From assembly GCA_043739465.1 (NCBI GenBank), contig JAYUEA010000476.1:1-29974 (forward strand): a stretch of 29,974 nt of DNA. The letters are read 5' to 3'. Below, one piece after another: positions 3,513 through 29,974 of the stretch. Under the pieces are notes generated by a model. That model saw only the letters and a program-made list of their open reading frames with translations. It searched no databases and was not told the DNA's origin. This DNA comes from Propionibacteriaceae bacterium (lineage in GTDB: Bacteria > Actinomycetota > Actinomycetes > Propionibacteriales > Propionibacteriaceae). The position numbers and the translations under genes are program-made. Within the stretch, counting starts at the first letter, position 1. Each line of letters opens with the position of its first letter.

Positions 3513-4646
3513 TCAGCGGAGGTAGGCGTGCTCCCAGCGGCGGAGCTCGTCGTGGTAGCTGGTGCGTGCGTCCTCCTGAGACAGGGAGACGTCGTGGATG
3601 GCGCCCTCGATCCGTATGAGCGTGAGGTGACGGCCGAGGCGGTGGGCCTGCGCGGCCAGCCGGGGCACGTCCAGCACGGTGTCCGCGCGGCACAGGTCGC
3701 TGGACCAGCGGCGCCGGAAGTCGCTCCTGGCCGACGTGACCATGAGGATCGGGCAGTCGATGTCGAGGCCCGCTGAGACCTGCTCGTGGCCCGCGGTGAC
3801 GGCGGTCAGCCACCCCGAACGCACCGGCTGAGACGGGTTGCGCTTCAGCTCGGGGTCGTACGTCCACTCTCCGTCCTGCGCCGCATCGATCGAGCGCGCG
3901 TAGAAGCCGTTGTCGGAAATCGGGAGCGGCCACGTCGCCGCGCGGGTCGCGAGGCTGCGGATCAGCGGCGGGACGAGCGCCCGGACGAGCGCCGAGCCCT
4001 GCAGCTCGATCCACGGGGAGTTGAGCACCAGCCCGTCCAGCGCGCCCAGGTGACGGTTCGCCCAGAGCACGGCAGTCAGGCCGCCCGTCGAGTGGGCCGT
4101 CATCACGACGCTGCCGTGTCGGCGCGCGACGTGGGCGATGGCAGCGTCGATCTCGAGGTCGTAGTCAGCGAGGTCCTCGATGTAGCCTCCCATCAGCCCG
4201 GGACGCAGGTTGCGTCCGTAGCGACGGAGGTCGAGGGCGTAGAAGTCGTACCCCAGCGCGTCCCACCAGTCAGCCACGTGGGTGTGGAAGAAGTAGTCGT
4301 TCCAGCCATGGATCGACAGCACCGCTCTCGGGTGACGCCGCTTGTTCCGCCGCACGAGCGTGGCGGTGAGCGAGCCGTCGCCGATGTCGGGGTCGATCTC
4401 TTCGGGGTGCCGCGTCACGCCCACCAGCGACATCTCGCGCGCCTGGTAGCCAGGCAGCAGGTCGTCGACCTCCCACGCTCCCCAGCGCACGTGAGCCGGC
4501 GTCGCGGTCTCCGGCGTGGGCTCGGGCAGCTCAACCTCGAGCTCCTCAATCGGTACGGGTTCCGGCGCGATCTCCACCGGGTCGGCCGCGACCTCCGTGC
4601 GCGAGGCCAGTACCGACTGCAGCAGGGCGAGAGAACCGAACCTCAT
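3513..4646 (-). CDS. Alpha/beta hydrolase (lysophospholipase/S33-like)
   Basis: IHGWNDYF oxyanion region, LDLRRYGR, nucleophile elbow AHSTGG, catalytic His in GAIHDV; TAGAGT hexamer 6 nt before the ATG. Confidence 0.85.
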   Translation of the reverse strand: MRFGSLALLQSVLASRTEVAADPVEIAPEPVPIEELEVELPEPTPETATPAHVRWGAWEVDDLLPGYQAREMSLVGVTRHPEEIDPDIGDGSLTATLVRRNKRRHPRAVLSIHGWNDYFFHTHVADWWDALGYDFYALDLRRYGRNLRPGLMGGYIEDLADYDLEIDAAIAHVARRHGSVVMTAHSTGGLTAVLWANRHLGALDGLVLNSPWIELQGSALVRALVPPLIRSLATRAATWPLPISDNGFYARSIDAAQDGEWTYDPELKRNPSQPVRSGWLTAVTAGHEQVSAGLDIDCPILMVTSARSDFRRRWSSDLCRADTVLDVPRLAAQAHRLGRHLTLIRIEGAIHDVSLSQEDARTSYHDELRRWEHAYLR

Positions 4647-4718
4647 GTTTCGACTCTATCCGGGCGCTATGACAGCGGCGAGGTAGGTGAACCCCCGCCG
4701 CAGGATCTGGATCAGTGA

Positions 4719-4979
4719 CTAGCCCGAACGCCTCAGCGACCAGGGCGCGTCATCAACGGCGTCCGGTTCGTCATCGTCATCGTCATCGTCACCGTCGTCC
4801 TCGTCGTCGAGGTCGGCGGCGTCGTCGGAGTCATCGGCGAGTTCTGCGTACTGATCAGGAATCGCGTCGGACGGACTGCGGAGCTCGCGCTCCAATGACG
4901 AGAAGTCCGTGGATACCGACCTGTACTTCAGTTCTCTGGCGACTTTCGTCTGCTTCGCCTTCGCACGGCCGCGCCCCAT
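4719..4979 (-). CDS. DUF3073 family protein
   Basis: Signature MGRGRAKAKQTKVARELKY plus an acidic tail; usual position downstream of purM in actinobacteria. Confidence 0.92.
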   Translation of the reverse strand: MGRGRAKAKQTKVARELKYRSVSTDFSSLERELRSPSDAIPDQYAELADDSDDAADLDDEDDGDDDDDDDEPDAVDDAPWSLRRSG

Positions 4980-5121
4980 AGAGCCAGCCCCCTCGCCTGT
5001 GATCGCTCGCGGAGTGGCCGCGGCACATGTTGTCAGTTCGTGCGGACCAGATTACCTTCAGCACCACCGATCCACCAACCTCGAACCACGGCCGTCTCCA
5101 TCGGGCATCCGCCGCCGTGGA

Positions 5122-6222
5122 TCAGGCCCGGTGGGCACCCTCGAGACGTACGGAACCGTCGCCCGCCAGGACCTCGCCGCACACCCAGGACGCGATCCCC
5201 CGGGCGGTCAGCTCGCGCTGGGCCGCGTCGACCGAGGCGGCCGGCAGCACGAGCGCCATGCCGACGCCCATGTTCAGCGTCGCCTCGATGTCGGGCTGGG
5301 ATATCTCCCCTAGCCGCTGCACGAGTCCGAACACCGGACCGGGGGTCCAGGTCGTACGGTCGAGGCGCCCGGAGACGGTCGCCGGGAGGACGCGGGCGAG
5401 GTTGTTCGCGAAGCCGCCGCCGGTGATGTGGCTCATCGCGTGCACCTCAGTGCCACGCACCACTGCGAGCACGTCGGCCGCGTACACCCTGGTCGGCTCG
5501 AGAAGCTCCTCGCCGAGGGTGCGGCCCAGCTCCGGGAGGTACGCGTCGAGGCGGAGCCCTGCCTGCTGCAGCAGCACGTTGCGGACCAGCGAGTAGCCGT
5601 TGGAGTGGAGGCCGCTGGACGCGAGCGCGAGCACCACGTCGCCCACGACCACGCGGTCAGGGCTGAGCATCTCGTCGGCCTCGACGACGCCGGTGGTCGC
5701 CCCGGCGAGGTCGTACTCGTCGGCCGCCAGCAGGCCCGGGTGCTCGGCCGTCTCGCCGCCCAGCAAGGACGCGCCGGCAGCCGTGCACGCCGCGGCGATG
5801 CCGCCCACGATCGCGGCGATCCGCTGCGGCACCAACGCGCCGCACGCGATGTAGTCGGTGACGAACAGCGGCTCGGCCCCGACCACGACGAGGTCGTCGA
5901 CGAGCATCCCGACGAGGTCCCAGCCGATGGTGTCGTGCTTGTCGAGCGCCTGCGCGATGGCCACCTTCGTGCCGACGCCGTCGGTCGACGTGGCCAGCAG
6001 CGGGCGACGGTAGCCCTTGAACGCGGAGGCGTCGAAGAGGCCGGCGAAGCCGCCGATGCCGCCCACGACCTCGGGCCGGTGAGTCGCCCTCACCGACGCG
6101 CCCATGAGCTTGACGGCGCGGTCGCCGGCCTCGATGTCGACGCCGGCGCGGGCGTACGCGGTCCCCGCTTGCCGCGGTGCCTGGGGCTCGCTGCGCTCGC
6201 CACGACTATCCAACTGGCTCAT
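5122..6222 (-). CDS. purM: Phosphoribosylformylglycinamidine cyclo-ligase (AIR synthetase)
   Basis: YARAGVDIEAG, STDGVGTK, GGETAEHPG, SSGLHSNGYSL and LNMGVGM; ATG overlaps the purF stop (TGATG). The longer ORF-track start is spurious. Confidence 0.97.
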   Translation of the reverse strand: MSQLDSRGERSEPQAPRQAGTAYARAGVDIEAGDRAVKLMGASVRATHRPEVVGGIGGFAGLFDASAFKGYRRPLLATSTDGVGTKVAIAQALDKHDTIGWDLVGMLVDDLVVVGAEPLFVTDYIACGALVPQRIAAIVGGIAAACTAAGASLLGGETAEHPGLLAADEYDLAGATTGVVEADEMLSPDRVVVGDVVLALASSGLHSNGYSLVRNVLLQQAGLRLDAYLPELGRTLGEELLEPTRVYAADVLAVVRGTEVHAMSHITGGGFANNLARVLPATVSGRLDRTTWTPGPVFGLVQRLGEISQPDIEATLNMGVGMALVLPAASVDAAQRELTARGIASWVCGEVLAGDGSVRLEGAHRA

Positions 6223-7682
6223 CAGCAACCTCGGATTCCCAGGGCCTGGGCCGCCGGCGGTACGGCCACGGGGTAGACGCCGTCGAAGCATGCGCGGCAG
6301 AGCTTGTCCTTGGCGATCCCGGTGGACGCGACGAGCCCGTCCAGCGAGATGTAGCCGAGGGAGTCGGCACCGATGCTGGTCTTGATCTCCTCGACGCTCA
6401 TCCCCGGCGCGATCAGCTCTGCGCGGGTGGCGAAGTCGATCCCGTAGAAGCAGGGCCACTCCACCGGCGGCGAGCTGATCCGTACATGGACCTCCGCCGC
6501 GCCGGCCTCCCGCAGCATCCGGACGAGGGCACGCTGTGTGTTGCCGCGCACGATCGAGTCGTCGACGACCACGAGGCGCTTGCCGGCGATGACGTCGCGC
6601 AACGGGTTCAGCTTGAGCCGGATCCCGAGCTGACGGATCGTCTGCGAGGGCTGGATGAAGGTGCGACCGACGTACGCGTTCTTGACCAGGCCGACCCCGT
6701 ACGGGATCCCGGACGCCTCCGCGTAGCCGATCGCAGCCGGCGTGCCGGACTCGGGCACCGGGATGACGAGGTCGGCGTCGATCGGGAACTCCATGGCGAG
6801 CGTGCGGCCGATCTCGAGGCGCACGCTGTGCACCCGGCGGTTGGCGATGCGGGTGTCGGGCCGCGACAGGTAGACGTACTCGAACAGGCAGCCCTTGGGG
6901 TTCGCCGGCGCGAACCGCACCGACTGCACCCCGGAGTCGTCGATCTTCAGCAGCTCTCCCGGCTCGACCTCGCGGGTGAACGTCGCGCCGACGATGTCCA
7001 GGGCGGCGGTCTCCGAGGCGACGACCCAGCCGTTCTCCAGCCGACCCAGCACCAGCGGGTGGATGCCCTGAGGGTCGCGTGCCGCGTACAGGGCTTTCTC
7101 GGTCATGAAGACCAGGCAGTACGCGCCCGTCAGGCGGGGCAGCAGGTCGAGCGCGGCCTCATGGACGGACTTGCCGCGGTACGTGCCCAGAAGCCCGCTC
7201 ACCAGCGACGTGTCGTTGGTCGAGTCGAGGCCCTCCTTGTGGGGTACGGGCTCGGTGAAGTCGCGTTCGAGCAACAGCTGTTCGAGCTCGTCGGTGTTCG
7301 TGATGTTGCCGTTGTGCGCGAGCGCGAGGTTGCCGTTCTCCAGCGACCGGAAGGTCGGCTGCGCGTTGTTCCAGGTGCTGGAACCGGTCGTCGAGTAGCG
7401 GGTGTGGCCGATCGCGAGATGGCCGGTGAGCGACGCCAGCGTCGACTCGTCGAAGACCTGCGACACCAGGCCCATGTCCTTGAAGACCATGATGCGGTTG
7501 CCGTTGCTGACCGCGATGCCCGCCGACTCCTGGCCGCGGTGCTGCAGCGCGAACAGCCCGTAGTAGGTGAGCTTGGAGACCTCTTCGTTGGGGGCCCAGA
7601 CGCCGAAGACCCCGCACTCGTCGCGGGGTCCTGGGGAGTCGGGGTCCAGCTCGTGAGTCAGACGTCCGTCTCCGCGTAGCAC
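6222..7682 (-). CDS. purF: Amidophosphoribosyltransferase
   Basis: ECGVFG (N-terminal nucleophile Cys), LQHRGQES, GHTRYST, VDDSIVRGNT, PCFYGID, CRACF; GTG at 7682 lies 7 nt after TAGGCT (7690-7695). Confidence 0.97.
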   Translation of the reverse strand: MLRGDGRLTHELDPDSPGPRDECGVFGVWAPNEEVSKLTYYGLFALQHRGQESAGIAVSNGNRIMVFKDMGLVSQVFDESTLASLTGHLAIGHTRYSTTGSSTWNNAQPTFRSLENGNLALAHNGNITNTDELEQLLLERDFTEPVPHKEGLDSTNDTSLVSGLLGTYRGKSVHEAALDLLPRLTGAYCLVFMTEKALYAARDPQGIHPLVLGRLENGWVVASETAALDIVGATFTREVEPGELLKIDDSGVQSVRFAPANPKGCLFEYVYLSRPDTRIANRRVHSVRLEIGRTLAMEFPIDADLVIPVPESGTPAAIGYAEASGIPYGVGLVKNAYVGRTFIQPSQTIRQLGIRLKLNPLRDVIAGKRLVVVDDSIVRGNTQRALVRMLREAGAAEVHVRISSPPVEWPCFYGIDFATRAELIAPGMSVEEIKTSIGADSLGYISLDGLVASTGIAKDKLCRACFDGVYPVAVPPAAQALGIRGC

Positions 7683-27622: not shown

Positions 27623-28507
27623 CTAGACCGAGTCGGGCGGGATCTCCTCGTAGCCATACACGTCGGCGCCGTTGGCGGCGATCTCGGCGGCGGCTGCCTC
27701 CCGGTCATGCGTGGCGGCCTGGACGGCCGCGTTCGCGGACGCGTAGATGTCATGGGCGCTCGCGGTCGTGCTGCGCTCGCAGACGAGCGTCTGGCCAAGC
27801 GCGGGACCGAACTCCTTGCCGCCGAACACCTCGGTCTTCACGAACTCGTAGTAGCCGGCCTTGGCGGTCGTGTACGGGTTGTTCGCCGCACACCGGGCCA
27901 CGTAGTAGCCGACGACCTCGCTGAACGTCTCCGAGGCCGACCCTCCGTAGGAGCCCAAGCGGCCGAGCCTCGAGTACAGGCTGGTGAAGTCCGCCCAGTA
28001 GGTCGGGTTGTCGGAGCGGTCCCGCGAGTATGCATGGCTGACCTCATGGACGAACAGCCGCGACACGTGGCCGGGGTCGGTCTGGTAGCTGGTCAGCAGC
28101 TGCGGGAAGTCGAGGCTGACTGCGTCGCGCTTGCTGAGGCCGTAGTCGCCGGCCACCCAGCCGCCGATGGTCGTCGCCCGCAGCTCGAGGGCGCCGACCT
28201 TGGAGTGGAGCGTCGTCAGGTACGGGGTGCAGCTGATCGCGTCGAGGGTCTGCCACATCATCGCGACGATCGGCCGGTACGTCTCGTCGGCCCAGTAGCT
28301 GCCGGTGGGCGTGAAGCCCCAGTTCGACCCGATGCCGTCGCGCAGCTGAACCATGGAGAGCTGCGGGCTGTACGGGTGCGTCGAGGGACACGCAGCGGGG
28401 ATGACCACCGGCTCACCGTCCGGGGCGGCCTTCGCGACCACAGGCACCAGGGACACGGCGACGGCCAGAAGTGCCACGAGAGCGGCACGGCCTACGCGCG
28501 CGAACAC
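27623..28507 (-). CDS. Secreted zinc metallopeptidase-like protein (HExxH)
   Basis: GGAGG RBS then GTG 28507; signal peptide ending AKA; HEVSH motif, downstream ETFSE; four Cys. Confidence 0.75.
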   Translation of the reverse strand: MFARVGRAALVALLAVAVSLVPVVAKAAPDGEPVVIPAACPSTHPYSPQLSMVQLRDGIGSNWGFTPTGSYWADETYRPIVAMMWQTLDAISCTPYLTTLHSKVGALELRATTIGGWVAGDYGLSKRDAVSLDFPQLLTSYQTDPGHVSRLFVHEVSHAYSRDRSDNPTYWADFTSLYSRLGRLGSYGGSASETFSEVVGYYVARCAANNPYTTAKAGYYEFVKTEVFGGKEFGPALGQTLVCERSTTASAHDIYASANAAVQAATHDREAAAAEIAANGADVYGYEEIPPDSV

Positions 28508-28694
28508 CTGACGGCACCTCCAGGGACGGATATGTCTTCCTGAGACCCTCTCAGCAAAGGGCCCCACGTGCAAGTTGGGGACCACGTGTCACCCGCGCCC
28601 ATCAATGGGCTTCCCACTCCTCCGTACACACTGTCGCTGCCGCTCTCGGAGGGCTGTCTCTGGGCTGGGCACCACCCGTGCCGCGCCGCCTACC

Positions 28695-29378
28695 TCAGCG
28701 GGGGTTGGAGACCACGTCGAGGAAGATCTCCAGGCTTGAGAAGAAGCGGCGGCCGTCGACCGAGGACGAGTCGGCTTCGTTGGCGCTGCACTCAGGATGG
28801 GCCATCAGCCCGACCACGGTGCCGCGTTCGTTCGTGATGCCGGCGATGTCGTGGGCGGACCCGGTCGGGTTCGTACCAACGTAGCGGAACACGATCTGGT
28901 CGGAGGCTTCGAGCTGCTCGAGCACCCCGGGAGTCGCGATGTAGCGACCCGAGCCGCAGGTGAGCGCCATCATGACCTCCTCGCCGGCCGCGAACTGGTT
29001 GGTCCACACGGTGTCGCGGGTCGCGACGCGAACTCGCTGCTCGACCGACAGGTACTCGTCACCGGCGTGGCTGGTGAGCGCCCCAGGCAGCAGCCGTGAC
29101 TCGCACAGGACCTGGAAGCCGTTGCCGATGCCGAGCACCGGCATCCCGTCGCGCGCCTGCTGGACGATCGCGTCGACGACGGGCGTGAACCTGGCCAGCG
29201 CGCCCGGCCGCAAGAAGTCGCCGAACGACGCACCTCCGGGCAGGACCACCGCCTCGACATCGCGGAGCGTGCGGTCCCCGTCGTGCAGGATGACGGGCTC
29301 ACCACCGACGGCGAGGACGGCATTCACGATGTCCGAGTCGTCCGTCGTACCCGGGAAGGTCACGACGCCCACCTTCAT
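28695..29378 (-). CDS. purQ: PurQ-like glutamine amidotransferase homolog lacking the catalytic Cys
   Basis: GVVTFPG, VLPGG.S.GD.LR, GMPVLGIGNGFQ (canonical GICNGFQ), LLPGAL, VFRY and GLMAHPE. Confidence 0.88.
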   Translation of the reverse strand: MKVGVVTFPGTTDDSDIVNAVLAVGGEPVILHDGDRTLRDVEAVVLPGGASFGDFLRPGALARFTPVVDAIVQQARDGMPVLGIGNGFQVLCESRLLPGALTSHAGDEYLSVEQRVRVATRDTVWTNQFAAGEEVMMALTCGSGRYIATPGVLEQLEASDQIVFRYVGTNPTGSAHDIAGITNERGTVVGLMAHPECSANEADSSSVDGRRFFSSLEIFLDVVSNPR

Positions 29379-29974
29379 GCGTCGGTCCCCTCGGTGGGTT
29401 CCTCCGTGGCGTGGTCGGCGACGGTGACCTGGTACGTCGTCGGCTCGGAGTCAGCCCCGTCGTCCTTGGCGCAGTCGCAGTCGTTTCCGCAGCCCTCGCC
29501 GTCGTCCGCGGCGCAGTCCTCGCACCCGCAGTCGCTGTCGACGAGCGACACCTCGAAGTCCTCGACCTCGCTGTGTACGAGCACCTCCTCGGCGGCCCTG
29601 TTCACCTGGTCGAGCCGCTCCTGGGTCAGCTCGCCGTCGAGGACGACCTCGAAGCGCTTGCCCTGACGAACTGTGAAGCCTACGTAGCCGAGCCGCTTCA
29701 GGGCCTCGGTGATGGCCGCACCCTGCGCGTCGTGGATGTCCTCCTTGAGCATGACGTCGACGATGAAGACCGACTGCTCGGTGGCGGGTGGGGCGTTCTC
29801 GGAGCCCTCCGCCGCATCCGTACCCTCGTCGGCCGGAGCCTGCCCCGCGGTCTCGGCCGGAGCCTCGTCAGCGGCAGCGACCTCTGCGGTCAGCGGGGCG
29901 GAAGGGCCGACCTGGGCGCCGGTGAGGCGCTGGTACGTGTCCGCGTAGGTCGCCGAGAGGTTCGACACCACGTC
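29375..29974 (-). CDS. purS: PurS-like domain with a Cys-rich tail, apparently fused to an upstream PurC C-terminus (partial; ORF open at the window edge)
   Basis: Frame open to base 29974: DVVSNLSATYADTYQRLTG (PurC-like end), acidic linker, VDVMLK..I.D.QG.AI..AL.RLG...VRQGKRFE (PurS), then CGCEDC...CGNDCDC; ATGA overlap with purQ. Confidence 0.8.
   Translation of the reverse strand, partial: DVVSNLSATYADTYQRLTGAQVGPSAPLTAEVAAADEAPAETAGQAPADEGTDAAEGSENAPPATEQSVFIVDVMLKEDIHDAQGAAITEALKRLGYVGFTVRQGKRFEVVLDGELTQERLDQVNRAAEEVLVHSEVEDFEVSLVDSDCGCEDCAADDGEGCGNDCDCAKDDGADSEPTTYQVTVADHATEEPTEGTDA

Follow-up and report, generated by a model that had tools for sequence, protein, structure and literature searches.

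The window analysed here, meaning the whole stretch of DNA of 29,974 nucleotides, is an entire contig of a Propionibacteriaceae metagenome-assembled genome (G000), which amounts to 2.49 Mb on 575 contigs and is 84% complete. The genes and features considered below are all found on its minus strand:

28695 to 29378, minus strand: purQ coding sequence, an intact reading frame for 227 amino acids with an ATG start, stop codon included, lacking the nucleophile Cys.
29124 to 29126, minus strand: nucleophile codon, GGC, giving Gly85 at the catalytic Cys site (Cys86 of T. maritima PurQ).
29229 to 29231, minus strand: Ala50, which turns GGF into GGA in the oxyanion-strand motif; the Phe is invariant in 31 Cys-type PurQs.
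28791 to 28802, minus strand: Ala193-His194-Pro195-Glu196 (MAHPE), with the triad His and Glu kept and the preceding Pro changed to Ala.
29375 to 29378, minus strand: ATGA overlap, in which the purQ ATG (29378-29376) lies over the PurC-PurS stop codon TGA (29377-29375).
29375 to 29974, minus strand: 3' part of a purC-purS fusion, which encodes the C-terminus of PurC followed by an acidic linker, the PurS domain and an acidic tail rich in Cys; its frame stays open up to the end of the contig.
29522 to 29776, minus strand: PurS domain, the predicted partner of the purQ product, with altered motifs (DPQG to DAQG, LLANT to LVHS).

The purQ product scored 246 bits against NF002957 (curated equivalog cut-off 212) and 215.4 bits against TIGR01737 (cut-off 177.8), and it also matched Pfam GATase_5. 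An AlphaFold2 model was obtained with a pLDDT of 86.9 and a pTM of 0.88, and the top Foldseek match of this model was 3D54_D, the PurQ chain of T. maritima (TM 0.87, rmsd 1.6 Å, 37% identity), followed by the glutaminase domains of lgPurL. As judged by the model and the Foldseek matches, the protein meets the criterion for the class I (triad) glutamine amidotransferase fold. Of the features that define the PurQ family, the equivalog score and the neighbouring PurS partner are present, while the nucleophile Cys of the triad and the PGGFS oxyanion motif are not, and no smPurL (TIGR01736) partner was found.

HMMER alignment placed Gly85 opposite Cys86 of 3D54_D, a chain of the PurLSQ complex solved for T. 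maritima. At 29124-29126 the plus strand has gcc, so that the coding strand has GGC between ATC (Ile) and AAC (Asn), giving GIGNGFQ. The replacement of the catalytic Cys, which had been proposed from the DNA alone in the original prediction, is thereby confirmed, as are the other substitutions listed there (GGF to GGA, RN to SH, GEG to GSG, NGS to TGS and MPHPE to MAHPE). All of these, and likewise the changes of C111 to Ser and of PEH to PEC, affect positions that are invariant or nearly so among the 31 Cys-type PurQs, drawn from two phyla, which served as our reference. The PGGFS motif, of which the GGF part has an oxyanion-strand role (PMC7124931), reads PGGAS. The exchange of RN for SH lies at positions 103-104, the Ser of GSG is residue 143 and the Thr of TGS is residue 172. 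The claim of a full-length frame with a retained His-Pro-Glu motif likewise holds, since the frame encodes 227 amino acids with both His194 and Glu196, and the HPE motif is kept across the whole Gly clade of the window's genus. The protein thus has clear homology to an active enzyme and has lost essential catalytic residues, as expected for a pseudoenzyme. Judged from its sequence, it is a PurQ by descent that should be regarded as a PurQ-derived pseudoenzyme (Gly-PurQ in the following), and it is predicted, in the absence of any enzyme assay, to have no glutaminase activity.

The Gly form is not restricted to the window. Among 40 related genomes, GIGNGFQ together with MAHPE was found in eight species of the same genus (the window's own counted), and all remaining relatives had GICNGFQ and MPHPE. 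A search of 5.8 billion proteins returned about 25 more clusters at 90% identity with the Gly form, from independent assemblies; the close relatives of the window's protein among them are 88-92% identical to it and keep its lineage-specific residues. The window's protein is itself recorded identically on three contigs. Together with the independent clusters this excludes a base-call error at the Gly codon, as the original prediction had argued from the number of substitutions. In a maximum-likelihood tree, 21 Gly sequences from one Propionibacteriaceae genus formed a single clade (support 100/100), in which Gly85 is conserved in every member. The stem branch leading to this clade is long, about 0.4-0.5 substitutions per site (0.42 in the tree with 21 sequences), and the clade splits into two deep subclades that are about 65% identical.

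It is also evident that these genes have evolved under purifying selection rather than decay, which is a further mark of a pseudoenzyme. The synonymous rates obtained by maximum-likelihood pairwise estimation were erratic (dS from 0.1 to 20), a consequence of saturated synonymous sites in a high-GC genome, and NG86 estimates and raw codon counts were therefore used instead. Within subclade B the NG86 dN/dS was 0.06-0.19, which is no higher than in active PurQ from the same genus (0.12-0.28). For the window's purQ compared with L056, the nearest relative for which DNA was available, dN/dS was 0.118, with 52 codons changed only synonymously and 20 changed in amino acid. Comparisons between the window and subclade B gave 0.29-0.48, values that are unreliable as dS approaches saturation in the deepest comparisons. 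No stop codon or credible frameshift was found in the approximately 25 Gly clusters, with two exceptions: P0092, which is one frameshifted variant, and the 458-kb contig L053. We rejected the latter as evidence of decay because the adjoining essential genes purC and purS are frameshifted there as well, so that indel errors in the assembly are the likely cause. The low dN/dS, the breadth of the Gly clade and the confident structural model therefore indicate a folded pseudo-glutaminase that is maintained by selection. The prediction that the protein is a retained pseudo-enzyme thus received support from a deep and diverse clade of intact reading frames, and the orthologues gave no sign of the relaxed selection and frequent disruption that would have refuted it.

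Immediately upstream of purQ lies the gene to which it appears to be coupled. The original prediction had spoken of preserved coupling to purS; the coupling stood, in the form of the ATGA overlap, but PurS turned out to be the C-terminal domain of a PurC-PurS fusion. The Pfam PurS match covers amino acids 70-142 of the frame upstream of purQ, and full-length fusions of SAICAR_synt and PurS were found in relatives (G011, G014 and L054). The same start/stop overlap occurs in L054 and L055, and implies translational coupling of purQ to PurC-PurS. The contigs break inside purC-purS both in the window and in the JGI contig L056. The PurS domain has changed on the same branch as PurQ, with MPKPEILDPQGKAV becoming MLxEDIxDAQGAAI and LLANT becoming LLVNT or LVHS, while PurS is canonical in the lineage that has kept smPurL.

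A complex model of two PurS domains and one Gly-PurQ scored 0.80, compared with 0.02 for the best control, and resembled the complex already solved. The score mark was calibrated on known cases: of 80 solved complexes 58 attained it, as did 2 of 110 mismatched pairs. The runs shared at least 79% of contacts, with a partner pLDDT of at least 79. In the model the interface is formed by residues 10-21 and 65-71 of PurS and residues 52-64, 93-107, 145-152 and 173-175 of Gly-PurQ, segments that contain several clade-specific substitutions in both proteins. However, it should be underlined that a solved structure of the T. maritima PurLSQ complex exists, which the model may merely reproduce, and that likeness to that complex is no proof of binding.

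The original prediction had suggested looking for a second purQ or a single-chain PurL; this check proved decisive, and the latter was found. The window's genome encodes a single-chain lgPurL, spread over contigs C107 and C221, with intact motifs (GICNGCQ and MPHPER) and with complete N-terminal and glutaminase domains of its own. No second PurQ gene was found in this genome, and only the lgPurL fragments matched the smPurL model (TIGR01736), both within an assembly that is 84% complete. The same pattern was seen across the genus: lgPurL was present in all eight Gly-PurQ species and smPurL was detected in none of them, whereas the four congeners with a Cys-type PurQ all had smPurL and lacked lgPurL. 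In total, the search for smPurL was negative in 10 congeners with lgPurL, five of which are 92-98% complete. Since FGAM is now made by lgPurL and no smPurL was found, Gly-PurQ has no synthetase to feed. The lgPurL of the genus is closest to that of other Propionibacteriaceae (e.g. 81% to Propionicicella superfundia), with the next-closest sequences in Dermatophilaceae and Intrasporangiaceae (76-78%). For G008 and G002 the longest reading frame taken as lgPurL was antisense, and these two entries were disregarded. A loss of Gly-PurQ and PurS had been considered for three lgPurL-bearing congeners (G004, G006 and G007) and was rejected; the locus is unassembled there, as purC is also missing or is cut at a contig end as it is in the window's genome.

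To put this combination in context, lgPurL was found in just 6 of 300 sampled Actinomycetes genomes (the window's own excluded), and neither a separate PurQ nor smPurL was found in any of the five of these that we examined. Absence of a separate PurQ in these five is what would be expected from an archaeon that acquired lgPurL: purS and purQ are absent from Methanocorpusculum labreanum after the acquisition, and it has been stated that lgPurL makes both dispensable (PMC3261824). Retention of PurQ is therefore unusual among genomes with lgPurL. Within a sample of Propionibacteriaceae, lgPurL occurred in 20 of 150 genomes and in 7 of 40 genera, and we compared the state of PurQ in 16 lgPurL-bearing genomes of the family outside the window's genus. 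Ten of the 16 had no separate PurQ. Two (G415 and G466) had lgPurL in addition to a canonical set of PurS, Cys-type PurQ and smPurL. One (G410, which we take to be the cultured Propionicicella superfundia) combined lgPurL with a PurC-PurS fusion and had no smPurL; its PurQ is of the Gly type, with the motifs GIGNGFR and MAHPEH. Three (G482, G497 and G493) carried degenerate PurQ-derived reading frames beside purC, in which the oxyanion segment is deleted and HPE is lost, and had no PurS; the comparison of the remnants in G482 and G497 gave a dN/dS of 0.36, indicating weaker constraint. Wherever a full-length separate PurQ was found in an lgPurL genome, PurS was there as well.

G086 (represented by P0037) stands for another Gly lineage of the family, one that has kept smPurL and has no lgPurL; in the tree of PurQ sequences this lineage branches with P. 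superfundia, not with the window's clade. Both orders of events therefore occur in Propionibacteriaceae, in that either the death of PurQ or the arrival of lgPurL may come first. As relatives show a dead PurQ with smPurL as well as lgPurL with an intact PurLSQ, the order in the window's own clade is unresolved.

Beyond the family, we scanned one genome for each of 185,579 species with a DNA pattern for P[VI]LG[IV]GNGFQ. This gave 102 loci, of which 86 were PurQ homologues according to our own PurQ HMM (E <= 1e-50). It should be noted that the pattern fixed Gly at the nucleophile position, and that the residue being always Gly is hence an effect of ascertainment. These homologues include loci from dozens of Sporosarcina species, from Bhargavaea, Lederbergia, Siminovitchia, Filibacter, Pallidibacillus, Actinomyces, Gleimia and Bdellovibrionota, and from metagenome-assembled genomes of Microbacteriaceae, Beutenbergiaceae and Micromonospora. 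Most Bacillota loci had Gly-PurQ within a normal purS-purQ-purL operon, and in Cerasicoccus the Gly form was a second PurQ copy. In Sporosarcina sp. FA9 and UB5, Lederbergia lenta and Actinomyces urinae, the Gly form was the sole PurQ, accompanied by an intact smPurL and no lgPurL. Each Gly type clustered with Cys types from its own phylum, and the tree held nine state changes, with its starred branches forcing at least four. On this phylogenetic evidence a PurQ without its nucleophile arose in at least four lineages, and probably in about nine.

Most Gly types share the change of GGF to GG(A/T/S), have Pro at the Cys58 site and vary in the residue that takes the place of the Glu in GEG. The Pro at position 58, tried as a marker of dead PurQs, was weakened as such by the active T. 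maritima PurQ, which also reads RPGA. The Sporosarcina Gly-PurQ has in addition exchanged His for Leu, and independent Gly lineages (Sporosarcina and Actinomycetaceae) have lost the His or the entire HPE while purifying selection persists. In Sporosarcina the dN/dS was 0.105 for Gly-PurQ versus 0.047 for the adjoining smPurL. A literature search found no paper on a dead PurQ, on a PurC-PurS fusion or on PurQ in Sporosarcina.

We favour, with moderate confidence, the reading that the dead PurQ of the window has been kept as a non-catalytic structural or stabilising subunit on PurC-PurS. Its starting point is what was observed in the lineage, namely the lost active site, the lgPurL, the failure to find smPurL, the purifying selection, the fusion and the start/stop overlap. 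In this lineage lgPurL carries out the FGAM step and Gly-PurQ is without a synthetase. According to the proposal, Gly-PurQ would nevertheless remain attached to the dimer of PurS domains in PurC-PurS, and may thereby serve as a structural or stabilising subunit of an assembly that contains SAICAR synthetase. That Gly-PurQ physically binds PurS, or affects PurC in any way, is an inference with no experiment behind it. For the window in particular, the weak points are that the genome is 84% complete and that the 5' part of purC is unassembled. In addition, PurS binding cannot be the sole reason for survival, as two genera keep a PurQ-derived reading frame by purC without PurS. Of the three roles offered in the original prediction, the structural one fits best, glutamine sensing is disfavoured, and an ammonia-dependent role together with smPurL is inapplicable in this genus, where no smPurL was found; the last remains a live idea for lineages that have Gly-PurQ beside smPurL.

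Gly-PurQ might instead be a functionless relic, in which purQ has been decaying slowly since lgPurL made it redundant and has survived through being embedded in the purC operon. This is unlikely but has to be taken seriously, given that most lgPurL-bearing relatives have no PurQ and some have the degenerate remnants with a dN/dS of 0.36, that erosion of the active site has gone well past the Cys, that the stem branch to the Gly clade is as long as 0.4-0.5 substitutions per site, and that PurQ has been dispensable in many lgPurL lineages, as seen from the decay across the family. In that family series, which runs from an intact PurLSQ with lgPurL, over Gly-PurQ with PurS, to a remnant and finally to nothing, Gly-PurQ could perhaps be a long-lived stage of decay. 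Slow decay is, however, difficult to reconcile with a dN/dS of 0.06-0.19 over many species pairs and 0.12 in the window lineage, which is no higher than in the active PurQ of the genus, with some 25 clusters that are intact apart from L053 and P0092, and with a Gly state that is older than the split between two subclades of about 65% identity.

Pseudoenzymes often serve as allosteric regulators, and Gly-PurQ could accordingly be imagined as a ligand sensor that modulates PurC or the purine pathway with glutamine, or a different metabolite, still bound in its old pocket. The conserved fold and pocket architecture, with His194 and Glu196 kept, would suit such a role, and vGAT (PMC7605207) and PDX1.2 (PMC6829848) are examples among pseudoenzymes. 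On the other hand, the pocket invariants F50, R103, E143 and P193 have been replaced and vary freely across the independent Gly lineages, which is to be expected if the glutamine site is unused; sensing is thus disfavoured, and we consider it rather improbable. More doubtful still is new or residual catalysis, by means of the His and Glu or another nucleophile, or a function as an accessory of lgPurL. HPE is conserved throughout the clade, but neither the nucleophile nor the oxyanion-strand Phe is left, and the dead PurQs of Sporosarcina and Actinomycetaceae remain constrained despite having lost the His or HPE. As for an accessory function, lgPurL already has complete N-terminal and glutaminase domains.

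There is very little room for the idea that Gly-PurQ is the non-catalytic subunit of an ammonia-dependent smPurL complex and that smPurL is merely missing from the assemblies. Such a combination does exist where Gly-PurQ is the sole PurQ beside an intact smPurL, as in G086, Sporosarcina, Lederbergia and Actinomyces, but no smPurL was found in the window's genome or in 10 lgPurL-bearing congeners, whereas all congeners of the Cys type had one. An error of sequencing or assembly at this codon, which has nothing in its favour except that TGC and GGC are one base apart, can practically be disregarded in view of the Gly in all independent assemblies of the clade and the at least eight additional coordinated substitutions that accompany it.

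A broader proposal, which we put forward tentatively and regard as possible rather than probable, is that nucleophile loss in PurQ is a recurrent, selected state in bacteria, and that in the window's lineage the pair of PurS and Gly-PurQ subsequently took on a PurL-independent job on PurC-PurS. In cultured genera such as Sporosarcina, Bhargavaea, Lederbergia, Actinomyces and Gleimia, this proposal takes the dead PurQ to be the only one beside an intact smPurL, so that either FGAM synthesis would use free ammonia in vivo or PurQ would have an essential non-catalytic role. Following the same reading, a dead PurQ in Propionibacteriaceae may precede, and favour, the capture of a glutamine-using lgPurL. 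S. pasteurii is reported to lack the activities of both glutamine synthetase and glutamate synthase (GOGAT) and to need ammonia (PMC7775470), which makes ammonia-fed synthesis of FGAM a natural hypothesis for Sporosarcina, although the Gly form has not been verified in S. pasteurii itself.

What is mainly of interest in these results is that dead PurQs recur and that one family has kept the full replacement series. To our knowledge, PurQ is regarded as an obligatory glutaminase in every organism with a three-subunit FGAM synthetase, and dead PurQs are labelled as active PurQ by automatic annotation, as in the records of the sequences studied here. A dead PurQ under selection means that metabolic models based on annotation over-assign glutamine-dependent FGAM synthesis, and that PurQ has a selectable role other than the production of ammonia. 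Moreover, within a single family each stage by which a single-chain enzyme replaces one of several subunits can still be seen: PurLSQ alone, a dead PurQ with smPurL, both systems, lgPurL with orphaned PurS and Gly-PurQ, a degenerate remnant, and nothing. The series makes the entrenchment of subunits, the birth of pseudoenzymes and the choice between ammonia and glutamine in amidotransferases testable, and is of relevance to ureolytic, ammonia-rich genera such as Sporosarcina. Cultured carriers are available in Propionicicella superfundia and Sporosarcina species.

Compared with known systems, Gly-PurQ is an orthologue of canonical PurQ (as in the PurL-PurS2-PurQ complex 3D54 and in B. subtilis), having the same place after purS and the same His and Glu. 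It differs in that Cys is replaced by Gly, Phe by Ala and other invariant residues as well, that no smPurL was found, and that PurS is fused to PurC. The vGAT of gamma-herpesviruses (PMC7605207) is likewise a dead relative of FGAM synthetase (PFAS) that is kept for a non-catalytic, protein-binding role. However, vGAT derives from a whole large PurL/PFAS and recruits a host enzyme for protein deamidation, whereas Gly-PurQ is a bacterial stand-alone subunit, for which a similar deamidation function is not implied. Memar_1841 of Methanoculleus marisnigri belongs, in the same way, to a redundant purS/purQ set by purC in an organism that makes FGAM via another PurL (PMC3261824). That protein is truncated, lacking about 150 residues and the whole triad, and has been read as a case of decay, in contrast to Gly-PurQ, which is of full length, widely conserved and under selection. 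PDX1.2 of the plant PLP synthase (PMC6829848) is also a pseudoenzyme in an amidotransferase complex and acts through assembly, but it arose by duplication of the synthase subunit and its active partners remain, while the smPurL partner of Gly-PurQ was not found. There is also a likeness to the other Gly-PurQs, such as those of Sporosarcina, which share the exchange of Cys for Gly, the intact reading frames and the purifying selection; these are mostly the sole PurQ in a purS-purQ-purL operon with an intact smPurL, whereas the window's clade, in which no smPurL was found, uses lgPurL.

The order PurC-linker-PurS, with PurS at the C-terminus, was found in the window's Propionibacteriaceae genus and in Propionicicella superfundia. 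The fusion genes are located as follows:

window 29375-29974, minus strand, 3' part of the purC-purS fusion gene, PurS being the C-terminal domain
L010:95-1501, L014:2177-3526, L054:4625-6004 and L196 (loci from relatives), PurC-linker-PurS fusion

At its C-terminus the fusion protein of this genus carries an acidic, Cys-rich tail (CGCEDC...CGNDCDC; CDCASCVDCTCEDCTCENCDCPDC in the congener G014), which, judged by sequence alone, looks like a metal-binding sequence. G014 has retained the catalytic Cys of PurQ, yet carries the PurC-PurS fusion, indicating that the fusion is older than the Cys-to-Gly change in PurQ.

Independent assemblies end at the same place (window position 29974, L056:1 and contig C443 of genome G006), the shared break point lying within purC or in the linker preceding PurS. 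Some property of this stretch blocks short-read assembly, and purC is absent from several genomes of the genus because their assemblies break there. In a close relative, positions 4490-6549 of the 458-kb contig L053 contain several frameshifts spanning purC, purS and purQ* (the gene for the Gly-type PurQ); pseudogenisation was set aside here and the frameshifts were read as long-read indel errors, since the essential purC is also affected.

The gene on the other side of purQ* is:

window 27623-28585, minus strand, predicted exported protein of 320 aa, immediately downstream of purQ*

No Pfam match to this protein was found. Its synteny is kept in all relatives examined, and in the Cys-type congeners it sits between purQ and purL.

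Two other Propionibacteriaceae genera that bear the single-chain large PurL have a PurQ-derived ORF of 210–225 aa beside purC, with PurS absent:

L200 (genome G497), L201 (G482) and L202 (G493), PurQ-derived remnants

All three have lost the HPE motif and the oxyanion segment; the Cys is still present in the G497 copy (GVCDGFR), and dN/dS between the G482 and G497 remnants is 0.36. Two further genomes of the family, G466 (100% complete, 1% contamination) and G415, combine a complete large PurL with a canonical PurS-PurQ(Cys)-small PurL set, an apparent transitional state with two FGAM synthetases. PurQ, small PurL and large PurL were all not found in G017 and G020 (Propionibacteriaceae, 95–98% complete), whose small genomes (2.0–2.2 Mb) may belong to purine auxotrophs.

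PurQ without the nucleophile (GxGNGFQ) recurs in many lineages, cultured and uncultured (pattern matches L057-L158), for example:

L068, Sporosarcina sp. FA9
L063, Lederbergia lenta
L079, Actinomyces urinae
L144, Gleimia europaea

The nucleophile-less protein is usually the only PurQ, encoded in a purS-purQ-purL operon that is normal in other respects. In the Sporosarcina PurQ the loss extends to the triad His (MPLPER); its dN/dS is nevertheless 0.105.
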